DNA from: a virus | Virus record (IMG/VR): IMGVR_UViG_3300042892_004373 | Span: 9,061-73,060 of that record | Direction: 5' to 3' (one strand) | DNA length: 64,000 nucleotides | In this document: piece after piece, positions 8,895 through 25,606 of the stretch | Position numbering within the stretch: position 1 is the first letter of the stretch | Layout: each line of letters opens with the position of its first letter | Notes under the pieces: model-generated | Told to the model about the DNA's origin: nothing | The model's input: the letters and a program-made list of their open reading frames with translations, nothing else | Databases searched by the model: none | Program-made: the position numbers and the translations under genes

Positions 8895-9896
8895 TTAGTT
8901 TATTGCCAATCTTTTTGTTGATGTTTTACCATCTTCTGTAATTTTTACAATATACATACCTGTTACTAAACTACTTACGTCTAATTGACTTTGTGTATTT
9001 TCTACTAAAACTTTTTTACCAACCATGTCATAAATCTCTATATTTTTTGTAGAATCTAGATCAGTTGTAATATTTAAAATGTTTTTTGTTGGGTTTGGAT
9101 AAACTTGTAATCCAGAGATTTGATTTTGATTAGTAGATAAAGATCCTGTTGGAGTAACTGATAAAAATGTATTTGATACACGTATTTCATCAATTTCAAC
9201 ATTACCAGATCCCGCTGTTGCAGTACCACCTTGTCTAATTACAAAACCTGTAATCGTTGTGGGTGCCGCAGTAGTTCCTGTAGAATTTGTTACTGTTGCA
9301 GTTGGTTCGGTATTACCAGGTACTGGATTTACAAATAAACTAGCAGTATTGGTTGATAATTCATACTTTACAACTAATAGGTGTGTACTGCCTACTAATA
9401 GATCACTTGTAAATGTTGGTGTTGCTGTACCACCACTATTATTTAGTATTCCAACTTGAAAACCTGATGTGGCACCCTGTCTTGTATAAATTCTTCCTTG
9501 AAATGCGGTTGTTGTTGCACTTGCAACAGACGTTAATGATAAACCGTAGCTTCCAGTTGTTGAAGTATTTGGATCTAATTGTGTTGCATCTAATACTTTA
9601 ATTAGTACTGAGTAGTAGACAACTCCTGATAATGGTGTTGTTAGTGGAAAGTTCACATCTTCTGTATTACCTGCAATCATAGAGGTTCTATTACCTGTTG
9701 ATGTTGCCAAACCAGGATAAGATAAACTGCTACCATTATCGCTAGATGAGGTAATTATTGATAATTGTCCGGGGGTTCCACTGTGTGTAGTCCAACCATT
9801 TGAGGTTAGTGTACCTGTTCCATTAAAAGGAATGTAGGTTTGACCGAAAGAAATAGTTGTCATAAGTAAGACAACTAAAGTTAAAAGTTTTTTCAT
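8895..9896 (-). CDS. T9SS type A sorting-domain (CTD) secreted protein
   Basis: Signal peptide; C-terminal VYPNPT..LNI..IYDMVGK..GMYIVKI..KRLAIN. Confidence 0.85.
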   Translation of the reverse strand: MKKLLTLVVLLMTTISFGQTYIPFNGTGTLTSNGWTTHSGTPGQLSIITSSSDNGSSLSYPGLATSTGNRTSMIAGNTEDVNFPLTTPLSGVVYYSVLIKVLDATQLDPNTSTTGSYGLSLTSVASATTTAFQGRIYTRQGATSGFQVGILNNSGGTATPTFTSDLLVGSTHLLVVKYELSTNTASLFVNPVPGNTEPTATVTNSTGTTAAPTTITGFVIRQGGTATAGSGNVEIDEIRVSNTFLSVTPTGSLSTNQNQISGLQVYPNPTKNILNITTDLDSTKNIEIYDMVGKKVLVENTQSQLDVSSLVTGMYIVKITEDGKTSTKRLAIN

Positions 9897-17822: not shown

Positions 17823-19877
17823 ATGAAGAAATTAAAACTTTATGAGTTATTTACCGGAGAAGAAGGTGAACAACCAAAAACAAAGAAGAAAACTCCGTTC
17901 TTAGACACATATGGTGTTGATATGACTAAACTTGCAGAAGATGATAAACTTGATCCAGTAATAGGTAGACAGAAAGAAATCGAGCAAGTTATATGGATTC
18001 TTTCTAGAAAAAATAAGAATAACCCAGTTATTATTGGTGAGCCAGGTGTTGGTAAAACTGCAATCATTGAAGGTATTGCAAGGCTTATGGTAACAGAGGA
18101 TTGTCCTGAAGCATTAGAGGGTAAAAGAATTATCTCTGTTGATATGGGTACTATTATGGCTGGACAAGGTGGTTTAGAAGCTAAAGTAAAAGCTTTAATG
18201 GATGAACTCCAAGATAATCCAGATATTATTCTTTTTATTGATGAGATTCACTTAATGGTTAATAAAACTGTACCAATTGATATGGCAAATCAAATTAAAC
18301 CGGCTTTGGCAAGAGGTAATATGCGTTTAATTGGAGCAACTACTAATAACGAATTTAGAAATTCGATTGAGAAGGATGGTGCTTTAGAAAGAAGATTTCA
18401 AAAAGTAAATGTTGAAGAGCCATCTATTGAGGATACAATTGAAATTTTAATGAAGATTAAAAATAAATATGAAGACTTTCATAAAGTTTCATATAATGAT
18501 GATGCAATCGAAGCATGTGTTACATTATCAGGTAGATTTATCTCTGATAGATACTTCCCAGATAAAGCAATTGATTTAATGGATGAGGTTGGTGCAAAAA
18601 TGAGAATATCTGCAAAGAAATCTACTCCACCAGAGCTTATAGAAATAGAGAAAGAGTTATCTGAGATAAGAATACAAAAATCAGAATTCTTAAAAGCACA
18701 AAAATATCAAGAAGCAGGTGATTTAAGACCAAGAGAAAATGAATTGGTTGTTAAAGCTATTGAGATTAAGAAGGCTGCGAAAGATATGCCAAGAATTACA
18801 ATTACTAAAGAAGATGTTGAAAGAATTCTTTCTTTAAAAACTGGTATACCTACACAAGTAACTGGTGATGAAGGTAAAAGACTTTTAGGACTAGAAGGTG
18901 AATTAAAGATGCAGATTATTGGACAGGATGAAGCAGTTACAAAAATTGCAAAATCTATTAGAAGAAACAGAGCGGGTTTAAAAGATCCTAATAGACCAGC
19001 AGGTGTATTTCTTTTCTTAGGTTCTACTGGTACTGGTAAAACACATACTGTGAAAACATTAGCAAAGAATGTATTTGGTACTGAGGATGCAATGATTAGA
19101 GTTGATATGTCAGAATATGCGGAGAAACATAATGTTGCTAGAATGATAGGTTCTCCTCCTGGATATGTGGGATATGGTGAAGGTGGTCAATTGACTGAAA
19201 AAGTAAGAAGAAAGCCTTATTGTATTATATTATTTGATGAGTTAGAGAAAGCACACCCTAGTGTAATGGATATCATGTTACAGATTTTTGACGATGGACA
19301 CTTAACAGATGGTGAAGGAAGAAAAGTAGATTTTAGAAATACTATTATTGTTATGACTTCTAACATTGGTGCAAGTGCAGTAAATAATCTTGCAACTCCT
19401 GTTGGATTTGGTGCTGATAAACCAATGGTTAAAGAAGAAAATGCTAAAGCGACAATTAAAGCTGAGTTAAGCAAAAGATTAAAACCTGAGTTTATCAATA
19501 GAATTGATGAAATTATAATATTCTCTTCTTTATCGAAAGAAAATATTTATAAAATTATTGATATTGAGATTAAGAAAGTTGAAAGTAAGTTAAAAGCTAT
19601 GAATTTATCATTAGAGATTACAACTGCTTTTAAAGATTTGTTGATTGACAAAGGATATGATGAAAAGATGGGTGCTCGTCCATTAAAAAGAGCGATTCAA
19701 CATTACTTAGAAGATCCACTTTCAGATGAGATCTTAGGTGGTGAATTAGAAGGAAATGTTTTAGTTGATTATGATCCTTCTACCAATAAAATTTTACTTA
19801 ATGATAAACCATTTGATGTGAATGAGAGTAAAAACTTCAAATATCTTAAACCATTAAATGAATTTTTTAAAAAATAA
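17823..19877 (+). CDS. clpC: Clp ATPase (ClpC/ClpA-type) lacking the N-terminal domain
   Basis: Two AAA+ modules (GEPGVGKT, GSTGTGKT), GYVG pore loop, UVR-like middle domain, VGFG ClpP-docking loop. Confidence 0.88.
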   Translation: MKKLKLYELFTGEEGEQPKTKKKTPFLDTYGVDMTKLAEDDKLDPVIGRQKEIEQVIWILSRKNKNNPVIIGEPGVGKTAIIEGIARLMVTEDCPEALEGKRIISVDMGTIMAGQGGLEAKVKALMDELQDNPDIILFIDEIHLMVNKTVPIDMANQIKPALARGNMRLIGATTNNEFRNSIEKDGALERRFQKVNVEEPSIEDTIEILMKIKNKYEDFHKVSYNDDAIEACVTLSGRFISDRYFPDKAIDLMDEVGAKMRISAKKSTPPELIEIEKELSEIRIQKSEFLKAQKYQEAGDLRPRENELVVKAIEIKKAAKDMPRITITKEDVERILSLKTGIPTQVTGDEGKRLLGLEGELKMQIIGQDEAVTKIAKSIRRNRAGLKDPNRPAGVFLFLGSTGTGKTHTVKTLAKNVFGTEDAMIRVDMSEYAEKHNVARMIGSPPGYVGYGEGGQLTEKVRRKPYCIILFDELEKAHPSVMDIMLQIFDDGHLTDGEGRKVDFRNTIIVMTSNIGASAVNNLATPVGFGADKPMVKEENAKATIKAELSKRLKPEFINRIDEIIIFSSLSKENIYKIIDIEIKKVESKLKAMNLSLEITTAFKDLLIDKGYDEKMGARPLKRAIQHYLEDPLSDEILGGELEGNVLVDYDPSTNKILLNDKPFDVNESKNFKYLKPLNEFFKK

Positions 19878-19910
19878 TAAAAAAACCACTCAAATGAGTG
19901 GTTTTATTTT

Positions 19911-20327
19911 TTATGATTTGTAGAAATCTCCTTTTTCTTCTACATATTTTAATCTTGCTTCTTCGGCTTGAGATCTTAATTTAACATATTCTTTTCTAAG
20001 TAATTGAATTTGTTTTTCTTTTTGACTTGTTTCTAATACAACTTTGAAATCAATAACATTTTTAAGTTTTAAGTACCAGAAGAAGTTATTGATTGACTTT
20101 TGTCCAGTTTTTTTACTAACTAGGAAAAGTCGTCTTGCTAACTTTTTCTTTCCAGTTTGTGTTAAGTGATCAGTCTTAAAGTTTATCCACTCCAAGTGTT
20201 CGTTTACTTCACCATCAACTTTTAATACATATTTTTTATCAATTGCAACTTGTGTTGCCTTTACCATTAGATTTTTTAAGTTTACATCTAATTCATTTAC
20301 TCCTGTGTTTGTTTGTTTTGTGTCCAT
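19911..20327 (-). CDS. Hypothetical basic protein downstream of the amber-containing leader
   Basis: 138-aa ORF with C-terminal coiled coil, followed by terminator. Confidence 0.6.
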   Translation of the reverse strand: MDTKQTNTGVNELDVNLKNLMVKATQVAIDKKYVLKVDGEVNEHLEWINFKTDHLTQTGKKKLARRLFLVSKKTGQKSINNFFWYLKLKNVIDFKVVLETSQKEKQIQLLRKEYVKLRSQAEEARLKYVEEKGDFYKS

Positions 20328-20382
20328 TTTTTTTAATATTTTTTTAGTTATTTTAATAATTTTAATCTTCTAAGTTAAAATA

Positions 20383-20415
20383 TTAAGTTGGACCTCTGAT
20401 TACAATCTATCTCAT
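20383..20415 (-). promoter_or_regulatory. Putative leader peptide with in-frame amber: MR*IVIRGPT
   Basis: ATG AGA TAG ATT GTA ATC AGA GGT CCA ACT TAA in the intergenic region; A-rich upstream; IRGP resembles RAGP/RAPP/RGPP arrest motifs. Confidence 0.5.
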
Positions 20416-20434
20416 GTTGTTTATTATTTTTTGT

Positions 20435-21025
20435 TTATATTTCGTTTACTTTTTTTACCTTAAATAGTCTATTTATATTATCAAGTTTTGCTTTAATATC
20501 ATCAACTAACTGTCTTTGAACTTTTGTGAAGGTTCTACCTTCTTCCATCGCATCAACTATTGCACAAGTTTCATTGTAATAGTTAGTTCTGAATCTTTCG
20601 GATGCAGTAAATGCGTCAGCAATGTTATTAAATCTATCTGAAAGTTTAATAGTGAATGCTTTATCAGACATATTTAACATTTTATTGATTAGATATGTTA
20701 CTTTACTACCATTATATTTATGTTTGATTTCATCTGTATTAGAGGTTAGTTCTAACATAAGGTCTGCAACTTCTTTACCAAAGAGTTCTTTTACATCTAC
20801 ATAAGCATCCCAAATATCATCGTAACAATCTTCTGCCACATCGTGAAGTAATGCTGCAATTAAAGTAGCTTCATCAGTAGTGTACAACTTTAATGTACCA
20901 TTTACTTTTTGTACGTGTGCATCAAAGTAAGACTCTCCTGTAAATTTTCTTACTTGATCTTTATGTGCTCTTTGGGCAAATTCCCAAGCTAGTTTTTCTT
21001 TTGATGTGATAGGTGCGTTCGCCAT
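20435..21025 (-). CDS. HD-domain (p)ppGpp hydrolase-like protein (SpoT/Mesh1 type)
   Basis: AHKDQVRK..Y..H, AALLHDVAED, IKLSDRFNN. Confidence 0.8.
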   Translation of the reverse strand: MANAPITSKEKLAWEFAQRAHKDQVRKFTGESYFDAHVQKVNGTLKLYTTDEATLIAALLHDVAEDCYDDIWDAYVDVKELFGKEVADLMLELTSNTDEIKHKYNGSKVTYLINKMLNMSDKAFTIKLSDRFNNIADAFTASERFRTNYYNETCAIVDAMEEGRTFTKVQRQLVDDIKAKLDNINRLFKVKKVNEI

Positions 21026-21066
21026 AACTCTTTTCTTTTTATATATTATAATGCAAATATATGATT

Positions 21067-21429
21067 TTATTTTATATATTCCTCAAATTCCTTATAGACT
21101 CTTTCCATAAATCTTTTTTCTTTATCTGTTATACCTGCACCAAGATCAAATACAAACCTACTCTTTATCATTTCCCAATTCTCCTCCTTTGTTTTATCTT
21201 CATCATAATAGTCTGAGATAATATCAACATAGTCTCTACAGTAAATATCTACTTTACTTCCTTTCATAGTAGATATATAGTTGTCATTTTCATCAATATA
21301 TGAGTAGTGACCATCATAATATCCTGGTATTCTTGCAGCACCTATTGGCACACCACCGTACATTCTTACATGTGATTCTCCTGTTGGGTCAGCGTCTTCT
21401 AACATTTTTATAAATTCTTTTGTTGTCAT
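21067..21429 (-). CDS. Hypothetical protein
   Basis: ORF closely coupled within the operon. Confidence 0.6.
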   Translation of the reverse strand: MTTKEFIKMLEDADPTGESHVRMYGGVPIGAARIPGYYDGHYSYIDENDNYISTMKGSKVDIYCRDYVDIISDYYDEDKTKEENWEMIKSRFVFDLGAGITDKEKRFMERVYKEFEEYIK

Positions 21430-21431
21430 AA

Positions 21432-22352
21432 TTATTGTTTATTTTTTAATAGATCTAGTACTTGTTTACCTCTTTTATCTAATTGTTTAAATTTTATTTT
21501 AAAGGAAGTGCTTTCAATACCACCAAACATTGTCGCATTAGAGTGTAATTCACAAAGTGCTGTTACTAATAATGTTAAAACGGTTTCGATTGAATTACTT
21601 TTAACAAAGTCTTCTACTTCATCTGATTTAATAGTATGAAATATCATATCTTTTAGGATTAAATCTGCAACTACTTTGTTATCAGAAATCTTTGAGAATG
21701 TATCAAATGAAACTTGTGTGTGGTTTGGAAAGTGTCTTTTACCTTGTTCGTCAATTGTCATACAGTAAGGCTTACCACAATCGTGCATTACTTGATATTC
21801 TTTAATATCTTCTAATGAATGAATATTATTTAAGATAAACTCTTTATTATCGGTGAACCAAGTTGGTAATTTCCAGTTATTGGTATCACCACTGATAAGT
21901 TTGTCAAAGTGTTTAGCAACAGATATACCATGTTCTAATATATTTTGGGTATCGGTTTGAGGTGTGGCTATCATGTCATAGATAACTTGTTGATAAGTAA
22001 GTTTTGGTTTTTTACCTAAAAGTGGAAGATATGAAACTTTCTTTCTGACATCTTTATCTGCGTATAAACAAATAGATGTAAGTTCATCGTTTAAATCAGG
22101 TTCGTAAAATTTTGTGACTGAGGTAAGTTTGAATAACTTTAAGTATAAGTCATTTAATTCTTTTTCGTTGTTTACTTGTAAACAAATGATAGAATTAGAT
22201 GTAGTTTTCCATTCTTTAAATTGTTGTGGAAACTCGTGTGCAAAGTCTGCGACAGAGTGTGTAGATTGTTGTGCTTGGTAGCCTGGAGTTAAATCACTTC
22301 TTGTGATAACTACTAATTTTGCTTGGTCTTTGTTAATCTAAGTGTTTTTCAT
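21432..22352 (-). CDS. Peptidyl-tRNA hydrolase 2 (Pth2)-HD domain fusion with in-frame TAG at codon 5
   Basis: ATG AAA AAC ACT TAG ATT... then 121 open codons (KLVVITRSDLTPGYQAQQSTHSVADF..EPDL..ELTSIC, Pth2-like) in frame with track ORF 21432-21974 (HG..V, HDCGKP HD motif); ATG is 2 nt after the upstream stop. Confidence 0.8.
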
Positions 22353-22354
22353 AA

Positions 22355-22543
22355 TTACTTGTTTTTATTTTTTAAAAATTCTTGTTCTTTTTTTGTAAGA
22401 CTTTTCATACCTTTTTCTGAAATTTTATCCAAAATTCGATTTAGTTCGTCTTCGTTTTCTTTTTTTATTGAGTTGTATTCATAATCATCTATAAACCTTT
22501 TCTCAACTTTTCTTTTAAATAGTTTTTTAAACCAACTTAACAT
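22355..22543 (-). CDS. Small protein with DUF6576-like ILDKIxxxGxxSLT motif
   Basis: ELNRILDKISEKGMKSLTKKEQEFL. Confidence 0.6.
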   Translation of the reverse strand: MLSWFKKLFKRKVEKRFIDDYEYNSIKKENEDELNRILDKISEKGMKSLTKKEQEFLKNKNK

Positions 22544-22567
22544 TGTTTATATATTAAATTTTTGTTG

Positions 22568-22633
22568 TGGCGATGGAGGGAATCGAACCCTCGGTCTTGA
22601 GTTTTAGAGGCTCTGACCAGGCCTTACAAAGCC
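22568..22633 (-). tRNA. Reduced amber-suppressor-type tRNA (anticodon CUA), 66 nt
   Basis: T-arm GAGGG-TTCGATT-CCCTC, loop CTCTAAA (anticodon 22605-22607), acceptor GGCTTTG/CATCGCC-A with two mismatches, D-arm tiny or absent; own TATCTTTG promoter. Confidence 0.75.
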
Positions 22634-22684
22634 ATTATTATTTTATCTTCTACAAAGATACAACTAATTTTTAATCTACCAAAT

Positions 22685-22894
22685 TTATTCTTGTTTTTTT
22701 AAATCATCAATTGCATATTGTTCTAATATCTCTGGATTGTGTTTCCATTCTTTCCAAAATTCAAAGTCCTTCAGTCTTTCTAATGTTTCTTTTGGTATTA
22801 AAACAAATCCATCTGGTGCAACTGCACCAAATTTATAATAATGTGCGTTCTTAATTTTTTCTTTGATTTCTTCTGTAATATTTCTTGGGTTCAT
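22685..22894 (-). CDS. Hypothetical protein
   Basis: ORF. Confidence 0.5.
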   Translation of the reverse strand: MNPRNITEEIKEKIKNAHYYKFGAVAPDGFVLIPKETLERLKDFEFWKEWKHNPEILEQYAIDDLKKQE

Positions 22895-23189
22895 CTTGTT
22901 CTTTTATATTTATTGTCTCAACTTTTTTAAAATTTAATAACCATTTGTATATTTTTGGTGAGATTATAAATACTAATTTCTCTATATTGGTTCTCCAAAC
23001 ATTTTCCCAAGTACCAACATTACAAGTGTTACACTCTTTATTATATTGTTGATGTGCACTACATAGTGAGAACCATCTTTCTCTAAAAAAAAATCTACCT
23101 TTATCTCTCATATGATATTTATCTAAAAAGTCATTTATTTTTTTGTTTACTACTTTATCTTTAGTAAAGTATTTCTTATGTCTATCCAT
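22851..23189 (-). CDS. Hypothetical protein (CSAH..CxxC putative Zn site)
   Basis: ORF. Confidence 0.5.
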   Translation of the reverse strand: MDRHKKYFTKDKVVNKKINDFLDKYHMRDKGRFFFRERWFSLCSAHQQYNKECNTCNVGTWENVWRTNIEKLVFIISPKIYKWLLNFKKVETINIKEQDEPKKYYRRNQRKN

Positions 23190-23233
23190 TCCATTCTCTC
23201 TCGCATTTGTAGATTATATACAAAAGTTGATAC

Positions 23234-24490
23234 TTAGTTTAATTTAGCTCGGATTCCAGGTGTATATATCTCCAACAATTGTATCAATTGTTCTTTACAC
23301 TCTGTAGTCAATGCTTTATTTTTGTTTTGATTCAACAAAATCATAAATGAACTTACAACTTTGTTGAACTTAAAAGCATCAGTAAAATCAAATATAGTTT
23401 TTTTGAATGATTCTATATCAATAGTTTCTTCTCCAGTTTTATACAACCAAGTTTTCATTCTACCAATAAATCTTCTAATTCCAATTATATTTTCATCTGA
23501 CCAAGAACCCCCATCAAAGTAGTGACCAATAAACATCAAATAAAATCTGATTTCATCTGAATCATATCCATCCAAACTAACTACATTTCCTTTAGATTTA
23601 GACATTTTTTCTCCCTCATTCAAAATCATTCCTTGATGTACCAACTTAGTTATTGGTTCTTCAAAGTCGATAAATCCAATATCATACAAAAACATTGTAA
23701 TAAATCTGATATAAATCAAGTGCATACAAGCATGCTCTGATCCACCAACATACAAATCAACTGGCTTAGGTTTAATACCTTTCATAATACAATAGATGAT
23801 GGTGTAGATAGAACTATCTACAAATGTATCCATTGTATCAGTTTCTCCATCAATAGGAATAGGACAACCCCAACTTCTTTGTCTTGAAACACACCAGTCA
23901 TGTTGATTTTCCAACCAATTTCTTTGCGACTTTATTGTAGATTCTGGAAAGTCAATCTTATCCAAACCTGCAATCAATCTTTCTTTATAATCTGTGATTT
24001 TGAAGTACCATTGGTTCAATGTTTTCTTTTCTACTTCTGTAGAACATCTTTCACATTTACCATCTTTTACTTGTTCTCTTGCCAATACGGTTTCACAACT
24101 ATTACAGAAGTCAACTTCACCATCTTTCTTATAAGCCAAACCTTTGTCATACAATTGTTTAAACAACCATTGTGTGTACTCAATATAGTCGGGATTTGAA
24201 GTAACCAAAATTTCTTCGTATTGGGTATTCATATTTTCCATTTGTTTCTGGAAATTTTGTATATTTTCGTAGGTAACTTCTCTTGGATCTCTACCTACTT
24301 TTTTTGCATAATTCTCTGCTGGCAAGCCGAATGCGTCATATCCAAAAGGTTGAAATACGGTATCACCTTTATATCTCAAGTATCTGCAGTAACTATCCAT
24401 AATGGCATAGTTATACCAGTGACCACAATGCAATCCTGATCCACTTGGATAAGGAAACATTACAGTTACATATTTATAATTATCAGTCAT
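23234..24490 (-). CDS. leuS: Minimal leucyl-tRNA synthetase (no CP1 editing domain, 418 aa)
   Basis: MFPYPSG, HCGH (HIGH), GYDAFGLPAEN, DWCVSRQRSWG, DTMDTF, GGSEHA, KMSKS. Confidence 0.9.
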   Translation of the reverse strand: MTDNYKYVTVMFPYPSGSGLHCGHWYNYAIMDSYCRYLRYKGDTVFQPFGYDAFGLPAENYAKKVGRDPREVTYENIQNFQKQMENMNTQYEEILVTSNPDYIEYTQWLFKQLYDKGLAYKKDGEVDFCNSCETVLAREQVKDGKCERCSTEVEKKTLNQWYFKITDYKERLIAGLDKIDFPESTIKSQRNWLENQHDWCVSRQRSWGCPIPIDGETDTMDTFVDSSIYTIIYCIMKGIKPKPVDLYVGGSEHACMHLIYIRFITMFLYDIGFIDFEEPITKLVHQGMILNEGEKMSKSKGNVVSLDGYDSDEIRFYLMFIGHYFDGGSWSDENIIGIRRFIGRMKTWLYKTGEETIDIESFKKTIFDFTDAFKFNKVVSSFMILLNQNKNKALTTECKEQLIQLLEIYTPGIRAKLN

Positions 24491-24553
24491 TTTATTTATA
24501 TTTTTAATTTATGCTTAGTTGCAAATATAATATTAAAATTTAATATATACACT

Positions 24554-25606
24554 ATGAAATACATTAAATCGAAGGAAGATTATCTAATAAACGAGAAGAT
24601 AGAGATAAGTTGGAAAGAGCTTATTATAGGATTAGGTATTATTTATGGAATAAATCATTATTTTGGTGAGGAAAGATTACCTCATATGAGTGGTAAAGAG
24701 ATAGATAAGACTATTAATGATATAAATAATGCACCTTCTAAAGAGGAAGATGCATTTATTAAAAAAATTAGAGAAGATTTAATTTCTGATATTGAGGAAA
24801 CAAATAATTTAGATTCGATAAGGAAGAAAAGAGTTATATCTGTTATTAAGAGTATAAAATTTGTTTGTGTCGATACTCGAACTATGCAAATAATTGGTGA
24901 AGATAAAGATGTTATGGCTTGTTACTTTAGACACTTTAACGAAAAGATGCAACAGGTTAGTGCTATTATAGTTGATAGAAAACGACTTAGTTCATTAGGT
25001 GCAAGTTCGATAATTATCCATGAGCTTAGACATTTAGTTGATGATGTTTTAGAAGGTGATGCGTTTGATAGTGAGAATTATAGTGAATTTACCAATATAG
25101 TAGATATTTTAGATAAGGATATAGTATTAGGAACTCCGGTTGGTAAAAAAAGATTAAAACAAAAAATAGATTTTTACTCTAGAAATTTAGTTGAATTGGC
25201 AATTGGTGGAAAAATAGAGGATATTAAAAGTGAAAAAGGTAGGAAAGAAGTAGAAGAAGTACAAGATCAATTTAAAAATAACTTTATTGGAATGTTTGAT
25301 AATAAAGAAGATACTAAGTATTTAACTTCTCCTGCCGAAGTTTATGTTAGATTTCACGGTTTAAAAAGATGGATGATCAAGAATGGTTATTTAAAAGATA
25401 TGAATGATATTATAACACAGGAAAAGATTATTCAAGTTTTAGGTGATGATAGGATTATAAAAGAACACGGTAAATATGATTTAGATTTCATTGAGTTTTT
25501 ATTCTACTTAGATGTTGATTTTACTGGTAAAGAGCCACATGATATGAAAAAGGTTAACTCAATAGTTGCAAACTATACAGATTATTTAAACAAACCTAGT
25601 GTTTAA
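24554..25606 (+). CDS. Putative zincin metallopeptidase with N-terminal tag and TM segment
   Basis: IIHELRHLVD HExxH, downstream YLTSPAE. Confidence 0.6.
   Translation: MKYIKSKEDYLINEKIEISWKELIIGLGIIYGINHYFGEERLPHMSGKEIDKTINDINNAPSKEEDAFIKKIREDLISDIEETNNLDSIRKKRVISVIKSIKFVCVDTRTMQIIGEDKDVMACYFRHFNEKMQQVSAIIVDRKRLSSLGASSIIIHELRHLVDDVLEGDAFDSENYSEFTNIVDILDKDIVLGTPVGKKRLKQKIDFYSRNLVELAIGGKIEDIKSEKGRKEVEEVQDQFKNNFIGMFDNKEDTKYLTSPAEVYVRFHGLKRWMIKNGYLKDMNDIITQEKIIQVLGDDRIIKEHGKYDLDFIEFLFYLDVDFTGKEPHDMKKVNSIVANYTDYLNKPSV

Follow-up and report, generated by a model that had tools for sequence, protein, structure and literature searches.

Can a phage gene be controlled by whether a UAG codon is read as a stop or as an amino acid? 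The question is raised by a ten-codon open reading frame (ORF) on the minus strand of a 64,000-nucleotide (nt) stretch of viral DNA, here called the window, which covers positions 9,061 to 73,060 of the 73,060-base IMG/VR virus record IMGVR_UViG_3300042892_004373 (CheckV completeness estimate 26%; G+C content of the window 29.8%). The mini-ORF lies between a gene for a SpoT-like HD protein and a gene for a 138-amino-acid (138-aa) protein and reads, on the minus strand, ATG(20415-20413) AGA TAG(20409-20407) ATT GTA ATC AGA GGT CCA ACT TAA(20385-20383), which is exactly the sequence that an original prediction, made from the DNA letters, had placed there. It had also been proposed that the Ile-Arg-Gly-Pro (IRGP) site is reached only after amber readthrough, so that the mini-ORF would act as a readthrough sensor for the downstream gene. 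The comparative tests agree with this proposal: the TAG is conserved in related loci (numbered with an L below), the codons after it vary synonymously, a tRNA(CUA) gene is linked to many of the loci, the end of the leader is predicted to pair with the gene start, and locus L075 carries TAA both in the leader and at the start of the nearby Pth2 gene. From the comparative and thermodynamic evidence the mini-ORF is probably a readthrough-gated arrest leader that makes the masked start of the 138-aa gene accessible; readthrough itself, stalling, the direction of control and co-transcription are what we infer. The elements concerned are as follows.

20383..20415, minus strand: leader mini-ORF, M R UAG I V I R G P T stop, recognized from its sequence and from the conserved design in relatives
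20407..20409, minus strand: in-frame UAG, codon 3 of the leader, next base A
20386..20397, minus strand: arrest-like core AGA GGT CCA ACT (R-G-P, then Thr in the predicted A site)
20377..20393, minus strand: anti-start segment, GUCCA (20393..20389) plus UUAAUAUUUU (20386..20377), from the minimum free energy (MFE) and centroid folds, duplex and permutation tests and an accessibility model
20322..20342, minus strand: predicted masked translation-initiation region of the 138-aa gene, AAAAUAUUAA (20342..20333) plus UGGAC (20326..20322, including the UG of AUG)
19911..20327, minus strand: gene of the 138-aa protein, the putative regulated gene, encoding the invariant C-terminal EEKGDFYK

Conservation of the leader and of its reading frame

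Homologues of the 138-aa protein were collected from 15 loci first and then, with a 13-sequence alignment, from 76 metagenome and 32 IMG/VR loci. Three of these 108 loci had no usable start, and the remaining 105 gave 82 distinct upstream sequences, 72 of them with at least 150 nt upstream. The leader pattern was defined as an ATG, 0-4 codons, a TAG, 2-8 codons, a tail of the form [PGSDE]P[TVS]0-2, and a stop. It was present in 62 of the 72 distinct upstream regions, against 4 matches in the 961,960 other bases of these loci (both strands), or 0.0009 per 220 nt, and the leader is the sole match to the pattern in the window. The mini-ORF is thus conserved upstream of homologues of the 138-aa protein, and the earlier reservation that chance could not be excluded for so short an ORF no longer applies; it is the comparison of homologues that excludes chance, and not the window sequence by itself. 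The in-frame TAG was kept across leaders whose downstream proteins share only 27-100% identity. The peptides (asterisks denote stops) include MR*IVIRGPT* in the window, MK*IIRGPT*, MKNT*IRIRYPP*, MKHL*IIERPP*, MS*VKPP*, MKET*IYIRGP* and, in L125, MKDT*IINRPP, and their tails were GPT (16), RPP (16), KPP (15), YPP (4), RGP (3) and seven others found once each.

The regions without a match to the pattern were inspected one by one. In L064 the leader MT*TKPP* is present and the start call was misplaced, in L075 and L082 a TAA takes the place of the TAG, and in L085 a tRNA(CUA) gene stands directly 5' of the 138-aa homologue, in place of the leader. No leader was found in L099 and L104, and L049 is truncated; L041, L042 and L107 are considered further below. 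The leaders of L075 (MKET*VHIRGP*) and L082 (MKER*VQTRGP*) are both TAA-gated, with no tRNA in the 5 kb examined, and may be an ochre variant of this circuit.

Of the 72 regions, 66 have TAG as their first stop (the 62 leaders and L041, L042, L064 and L107), two have TAA and none has TGA. TAG is rare as an ordinary stop in these phages: the 138-aa gene ends with TAA in 77 cases, TGA in two and TAG in one, and long ORFs end with TAA, TGA and TAG in 188, 41 and 19 cases, respectively. The base following the leader TAG was A in 52 of the 62 leaders and T in one. An A after UAG favours amber suppression, as is known from classical E. coli work. A U in this +4 position reduces read-through (PMC5289835; this and the other papers cited here are represented by excerpts of their text).

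Beyond the TAG, 57 distinct leader DNA sequences encode 45 distinct peptides, and the codons for R-G-P-T, R-P-P and K-P-P vary synonymously among the relatives: Arg is encoded by AGA, CGC, CGA or AGG, Gly by GGT, GGA, GGC or GGG, and Pro and Thr each by all four of their codons. Leaders with an identical peptide differ at third positions only. MK*IIRGPT*, for example, is encoded as ...ATC AGA GGC CCA ACT in L054 and as ...ATT AGA GGA CCC ACG in L059. Judged by this variation, there is selection at the level of the peptide in the frame that runs through the TAG, and ribosomes must therefore pass the UAG.

Pairing of the leader end with the start of the 138-aa gene

The start region of the 138-aa gene is matched, in reverse complement, by the bases at and just after the leader stop, and the sequences concerned differ between clades. 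In the window, TTAATATTTT plus GTCCA faces AAAATATTAA ... TGGAC; examples of facing segments from the clades are GTTTCCATAAT with ATTATGGAAAC, and TCCATAACTG with CAGTTATGGA. Over 59 sequences, the calculated duplex means were -10.2 kcal/mol for cognate pairs, -6.9 for non-cognate pairs and -4.0 for shuffled anti-segments, and none of 10,000 permutations (0/10,000) reached the observed cognate mean. The MFE and centroid folds of the window contain exactly this helix between the leader end and the start region. The 'AT-rich hairpin' that had been noticed 3' of the leader is more aptly regarded as an arm of this long-range helix, the other arm being the 138-aa start region.

The effect of a ribosome on this structure was modelled with the partition function for 60 sequences, using a 27-nt ribosome footprint and taking the mean unpaired probability of positions -18..+6 as the measure of accessibility. 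The mean for the free RNA, 0.51, stayed the same when the ribosome was placed at the UAG (0.51) and rose to 0.75 when it was placed at the last Pro codon; the start region opened by more than 0.05 in 49 of the 60 sequences (Wilcoxon p about 1e-10). For L035, which is identical to the window, the corresponding values were 0.32, 0.32 and 0.90. In the folding model, then, a ribosome at the last Pro codon opens the start region and a ribosome at the UAG does not. Disruption of a start-masking structure by a stalled ribosome, by which attenuators of the ermC and secM-secA type are recognized, is predicted here by computation.

A spacer of a different kind was seen in leaders of the MS* type. Most of L062, L067, L068, L076, L106, L121 and LR756501.1 (L143) have in common a conserved structured spacer with a CAAGTTTAATC...CGACTTG hairpin and, in addition, a pairing of TCATTATC with GATAATGA.

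The tRNA(CUA), the Pth2 gene and the genetic code

On the minus strand the HD_4 gene is followed by a 107-nt gap holding the leader, by the 138-aa ORF and by a terminator-like hairpin. Still further 5', this strand carries a 120-aa ORF, a Pth2-HD fusion, a DUF6576 ORF and a tRNA-like CUA gene. The features of this row, apart from those already given, are listed in the direction of reading.

22653..22683, minus strand: promoter-like motif TTTG-N19-TATCTTTG, just 5' of the tRNA-like gene, a block conserved in relatives
22567..22633, minus strand: 67-nt tRNA-like gene with anticodon CUA, heading the gene row, called by ARAGORN at relaxed threshold only
21432..22352, minus strand: Pth2-HD fusion gene (PF01981) with an in-frame TAG at codon 5 (22340..22338)
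20435..21025, minus strand: HD_4 (SpoT-like HD) phosphohydrolase gene, 5' of the leader (Pfam PF13328, E = 6.6e-15)
19882..19905, minus strand: terminator-like hairpin 3' of the 138-aa gene, bidirectional and common to a convergent ClpB-like gene

ARAGORN found canonical tRNA(CUA) genes in 34 of the 60 related loci. They invariably share the strand of the 138-aa gene, often lie tens to hundreds of bases past its stop and sometimes come in two copies; the other 26 have no tRNA(CUA) within the 8 kb examined. The 735-kb phage LR756501.1 carries the leader MS*SRPP*, a homologue of the 138-aa protein and two tRNA(CUA) genes in a row. The tRNA-like gene of the window (22567..22633) was missed by ARAGORN at default settings and by Rfam. 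Its D arm is reduced and its acceptor stem contains two mismatches, features which recur in L037; L036 and L111 have a different 3' strand that allows the acceptor stem to pair fully, and the CUA loop is retained in all relatives of the clade.

The Pth2-HD fusion reads MKNT-TAG-INK..., with no ATG, GTG or TTG for 122 codons after the TAG, and the TAG-ATT context that had been noted as common to this gene and the leader is present at its codon 5. Among Pth2 homologues in 60 loci (some contigs counted twice), 58 have M-x-TAG just before the Pth2 domain, and in L075 a TAA occupies this position as it does in the leader. The fusion is the sole long amber-gated ORF in the 73-kb record, and within 19800..24600 reading TAG as sense changes the Pth2-HD ORF only. 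The description of the leader as a second amber target therefore holds. Its extension to 'in the same operon' depends on the gene row being one transcript, which appears likely because its genes lie on one strand, with a promoter-like motif at its head and a single terminator. The Pth2 genes of L062 and L076 share a further in-frame stop within the gene body, at an identical position (...EFP*IY...), where other homologues have Q, H, I, E and other residues.

The TTTG-N19-TATCTTTG motif appears to resemble the Bacteroidetes -33/-7 promoter consensus. Contigs from four metatranscriptomic libraries match parts of 19880..22700, with strand and ends not given and DNA carry-over possible. One of these RNA-library contigs runs from 19961 to 20612 and covers the end of HD_4, the leader and most of the 138-aa gene, which is not proof of transcription. 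Another RNA-library contig (run X20) joins 21068 to 21444 without the 120-aa ORF, which suggests that a natural variant lacking this ORF exists.

No large gene split by TAG was found in the 73-kb record (~26% of the genome), and over this span the phage uses the standard code and is not TAG-recoded.

According to the mechanism proposed, the leader would be a cis-acting reporter of whether UAG is read as sense. Without a suppressor, ribosomes would start at the leader AUG and be released at codon 3 (UAG), GUCCA and UUAAUAUUUU would remain paired with the 138-aa start region, and the gene would be poorly translated. With suppression, charged tRNA(CUA), supplied by the gene heading the same row or by a further copy outside the sequenced portion of the genome, would outcompete release factor 1 (RF1) and ribosomes would continue. 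With Arg-Gly-Pro in the P site and Thr in the A site they would come to a halt, in the manner of an R-A/G-P-type arrest, and the stalled ribosome would cover the anti-start segment and free the 138-aa AUG. Since Pth2-HD in the same row would be gated directly by the UAG in its fifth codon, a feed-forward circuit of the tRNA and two targets would result in an otherwise standard-code phage.

Alternative explanations, known systems and meaning

Several observations weigh against the readthrough-gated arrest leader. The fold of the window is weak because A-U pairs make up most of the helix (z = -1.3; 18 of 200 shuffled sequences fold equally well). When 12 clade members were aligned with MAFFT and submitted to RNAalifold, the result was a trivial 3-pair hairpin only and no long-range helix, which in our interpretation is due to misalignment of the A-rich 3' arm. 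No opening was modelled in L062, L067, L068, L076, L121 and L135, with leaders MS*IKPP*, MS*VKPP*, MS*SRPP* or MY*VKPP*; L097 and L106 with like peptides do open in the model (0.50 to 0.77 in L106). The output mechanism may differ in the MS*IKPP*, MS*VKPP* and MS*SRPP* loci. In L041, L042 and L107 the motif is retained and the second stop is lost. A Lys replaces the Arg described as irreplaceable (see below) in the 15 KPP leaders, and other leaders have Y, H, N or E at the middle position; both KPP and R-Y/H/N/E-P-P agree less closely with the published core. TAG also ends a few ordinary-looking ORFs of the window, which suppression would extend. Finally, the activity of the window tRNA(CUA), as judged from its sequence, is uncertain, since the gene is non-canonical and uncalled at default thresholds.

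An unlikely explanation, which nevertheless survives best among the alternatives, is that the leader senses RF1 instead of the tRNA, scarce or inhibited host RF1 causing a pause or near-cognate readthrough at the UAG, and that the downstream gene would respond to the capacity for termination. The read-out would be the ratio of suppression to termination, two inputs which the sequence data do not separate, and the 26 loci without a tRNA(CUA) in the span examined would fit. A pause by itself would not suffice in the model, where a ribosome at the UAG leaves the start closed (0.51 vs 0.51); the peptide-level constraint past the TAG likewise demands that ribosomes pass it, and the same-strand tRNA(CUA) in 34 of 60 loci speaks for the tRNA as the input.

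It is quite improbable that M-x-stop simply ends at the UAG and that ribosomes reinitiate at the adjacent AUU, in the leader as in Pth2, without need of a suppressor. The codon after the TAG is indeed ATT, ATA or ATC in 46 of the 62 leaders and mostly ATT in Pth2. The other 16 leaders, however, have GTA, ACA, AGT, AAC, CTC or TTA there, mostly non-start codons. Moreover, any stop would serve for termination and restart, and TAA would be expected in AT-rich genomes, yet the count is 66 TAG, two TAA and no TGA. The linked tRNA(CUA) would also be left unexplained.

Lambda bar minigenes consist of a two-codon ORF followed by a stop and are functionally linked to peptidyl-tRNA hydrolase. A leader of this kind, in which M-R-stop leads to peptidyl-tRNA drop-off and titrates a tRNA or peptidyl-tRNA hydrolase, would account for the Pth2 neighbour, and just M-x precedes the stop in 37 of the 62 leaders. 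We consider it very unlikely all the same, as bar minigenes have neither a conserved in-frame continuation nor an arrest motif. The leaders have a conserved, synonymously varying frame after the stop, which this explanation does not cover, any more than it covers the complementarity between leader end and gene start or the exclusive use of TAG.

The possibility that TAG is a plain sense codon (genetic code 15) and the leader an ordinary arrest peptide can be given little credence. Related huge phages and other phage clades do recode TAG, according to the excerpts at hand (PMC13037316; Borges preprint). In the 73-kb record, however, only Pth2-HD is amber-gated and no large gene is interrupted by TAG; ORFs that end with TAG occur in the window as well as in 16 of the 59 related loci, and the invariance of TAG at the leader position would be unexplained for a free sense codon.

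The 31 nt identical between the window and L008/L009, despite only 68-79% identity of the flanking proteins, could be cited for a chance ORF or for a motif acting as DNA (a promoter or an operator). Either can practically be dismissed, because the motif has a single copy in the window and no other locus in IMG/VR, and distant relatives retain the peptide design with different DNA. A repeated promoter or operator had been considered and was rejected: in the window the 25-mer and its two halves are either single-copy or no commoner than expected by chance, and the 18-mer is found in IMG/VR only at this locus (7 stretches, all the same locus). A scan for sigma-70 promoters gave 16 sites versus 16.7 expected from shuffles, and Rfam at the gathering threshold gave nothing at the leader.

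The arrest motif can be compared with that of the RAPP-like and SecM-type peptides (ApcA, ApdA, ApdP, SecM). In ApcA, ApdA and ApdP the Arg of R-A-P is irreplaceable; in place of the Ala, Gly is tolerated fully or even enhances arrest and Ser, Asp and Pro are tolerated in part, and RAPP and RGPP are functional in several contexts (PMC12992588, excerpts). Arrest occurs with the Pro of R-A-P in the P site; in the A site ApcA prefers Pro, then Cys, Asn, Thr, Ser and further residues, ApdP prefers Pro, then Cys, Thr, Asn, Ser, Val and further residues, and ApdA requires Pro (PMC7897499, excerpts). The I-R-G-P of the window followed by Thr, and the RGP/stop, RSP/V, RDP/stop and RPP/stop of relatives, appear to fit this published core, of which R-G-P is the strongest form, but a Thr in the A site would not suit ApdA. 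The window leader resembles these peptides in an Arg-(Ala/Gly)-Pro core that would stand next to the peptidyl-transferase centre, and in a position 5' of a gene whose start is probably masked by RNA that a stalled ribosome would cover. The known peptides, in contrast, are C-termini of secreted or membrane 'monitoring substrates' of about 100 residues or more and are released by pulling force, whereas the window leader has its arrest site only past an internal UAG and precedes a phage gene without a Pfam or PHROG family instead of a sec or yidC gene. With only 10 codons and no signal peptide, the leader does not belong to the Sec/YidC monitoring-substrate families.

The nearest natural case of read-through modulating arrest, on the excerpts of PMC11890864, is the PepNL leader of E. 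coli pepN, also a short natural leader in which read-through of a stop by a tRNA alters ribosome arrest. There, a terminal UGA read by the ordinary Trp-tRNA relieves arrest at termination, whereas here a dedicated suppressor reading an internal UAG would create it. Synthetic switches, as excerpted, have a TAG in a leader peptide and require translation past the UAG for downstream expression (PMC6412442), and in synthetic feed-forward loops a suppressor tRNA and an amber-containing target are driven together, with less leak (PMC7969014). These circuits are man-made, operate in E. coli and use tna or trp transcription attenuators or in-gene ambers; the element of the window is natural, widely conserved in phages and would act on translation initiation. 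Phages of code 15 likewise combine a tRNA(CUA) with a low-GC genome and depletion of TAG as a stop (Borges preprint, in part), but the window record has no general recoding, and its visible targets are one leader and one gene start. A natural amber-gated leader was not found in full-text searches of the literature, which did not reach supplements, and neither 'leader' nor 'peptidyl' occurs in the text at hand of the Borges preprint on phage recoding.

The protein presumed to be regulated has no Pfam family, no PHROG and no usable Atlas match, and its AlphaFold model (predicted local distance difference test score, pLDDT, 86.7) gave no match at E <= 0.001 in PDB or BFVD by Foldseek. A profile search returned 326 clusters (50% identity), almost all with lengths of 120-180 residues, and the longer members contain no Pfam domain. 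Within the family the C-terminal EEKGDFYK is invariant and K103, I107, Q108 and R111 are conserved. A tblastn search of 50,697 phage records matched only the identical uncultured 735-kb LR756501.1 and LR756503.1, and no cultured phage.

A Bacteroidetes host is suggested by the promoter-like motif, by the lack of a Shine-Dalgarno sequence before the window leader and by weak DNA similarity to Tenacibaculum phage pT24; Shine-Dalgarno-like sequences precede 22 of the 62 leaders and none in the clade of the window. Near-identical DNA was found in contigs of lake, freshwater, wastewater and subsurface metagenomes, and rows with at least half of the sampled words came from 12 studies, two of them possibly the source. 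The module is flanked by a gene for a 418-aa short class I aminoacyl-tRNA synthetase-like protein (23234..24490, minus strand; tRNA-synt_1g / tRNA-synt_1) and, on the other side, by one for a ClpB-like double AAA+ ATPase (17823..19877, plus strand). Elsewhere in the window full-length GOLLD RNA (Rfam RF02032, 324 bits) adjoins repeated tRNA-like units (10031..10437 and 11150..11500, both minus strand). One tRNA-like unit near GOLLD has the four-base anticodon 'cggt', and ARAGORN at relaxed settings adds several odd tRNAs there.

Suppressor tRNAs are common in phages without stop recoding, and to our knowledge their purpose in such phages is unexplained. If the reading of the leader is correct, it would give these 'orphan' suppressor tRNAs a concrete target and a regulatory job, and it would be a natural case of gene control by stop readthrough coupled to nascent-peptide arrest, a logic that was built independently in synthetic biology. 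What has been defined is a conserved module of a tRNA(CUA), an amber-gated Pth2 and a 138-aa protein probably gated by an amber leader, which is present in public huge-phage genomes such as LR756501.1 and in which gene callers will mis-annotate both amber targets. We suggest, as a rather speculative extension, that in standard-code jumbo phages tRNA(CUA) could be a trans-acting regulatory RNA with a tiny regulon (Pth2 and the 138-aa protein) instead of an aid to decoding. The 138-aa protein might then act on termination or on the suppressor tRNA, for instance against RF1, giving a self-reinforcing switch and possibly a stepping stone to TAG recoding. The module thus offers a route to ask how phages pass from the standard code to TAG recoding.

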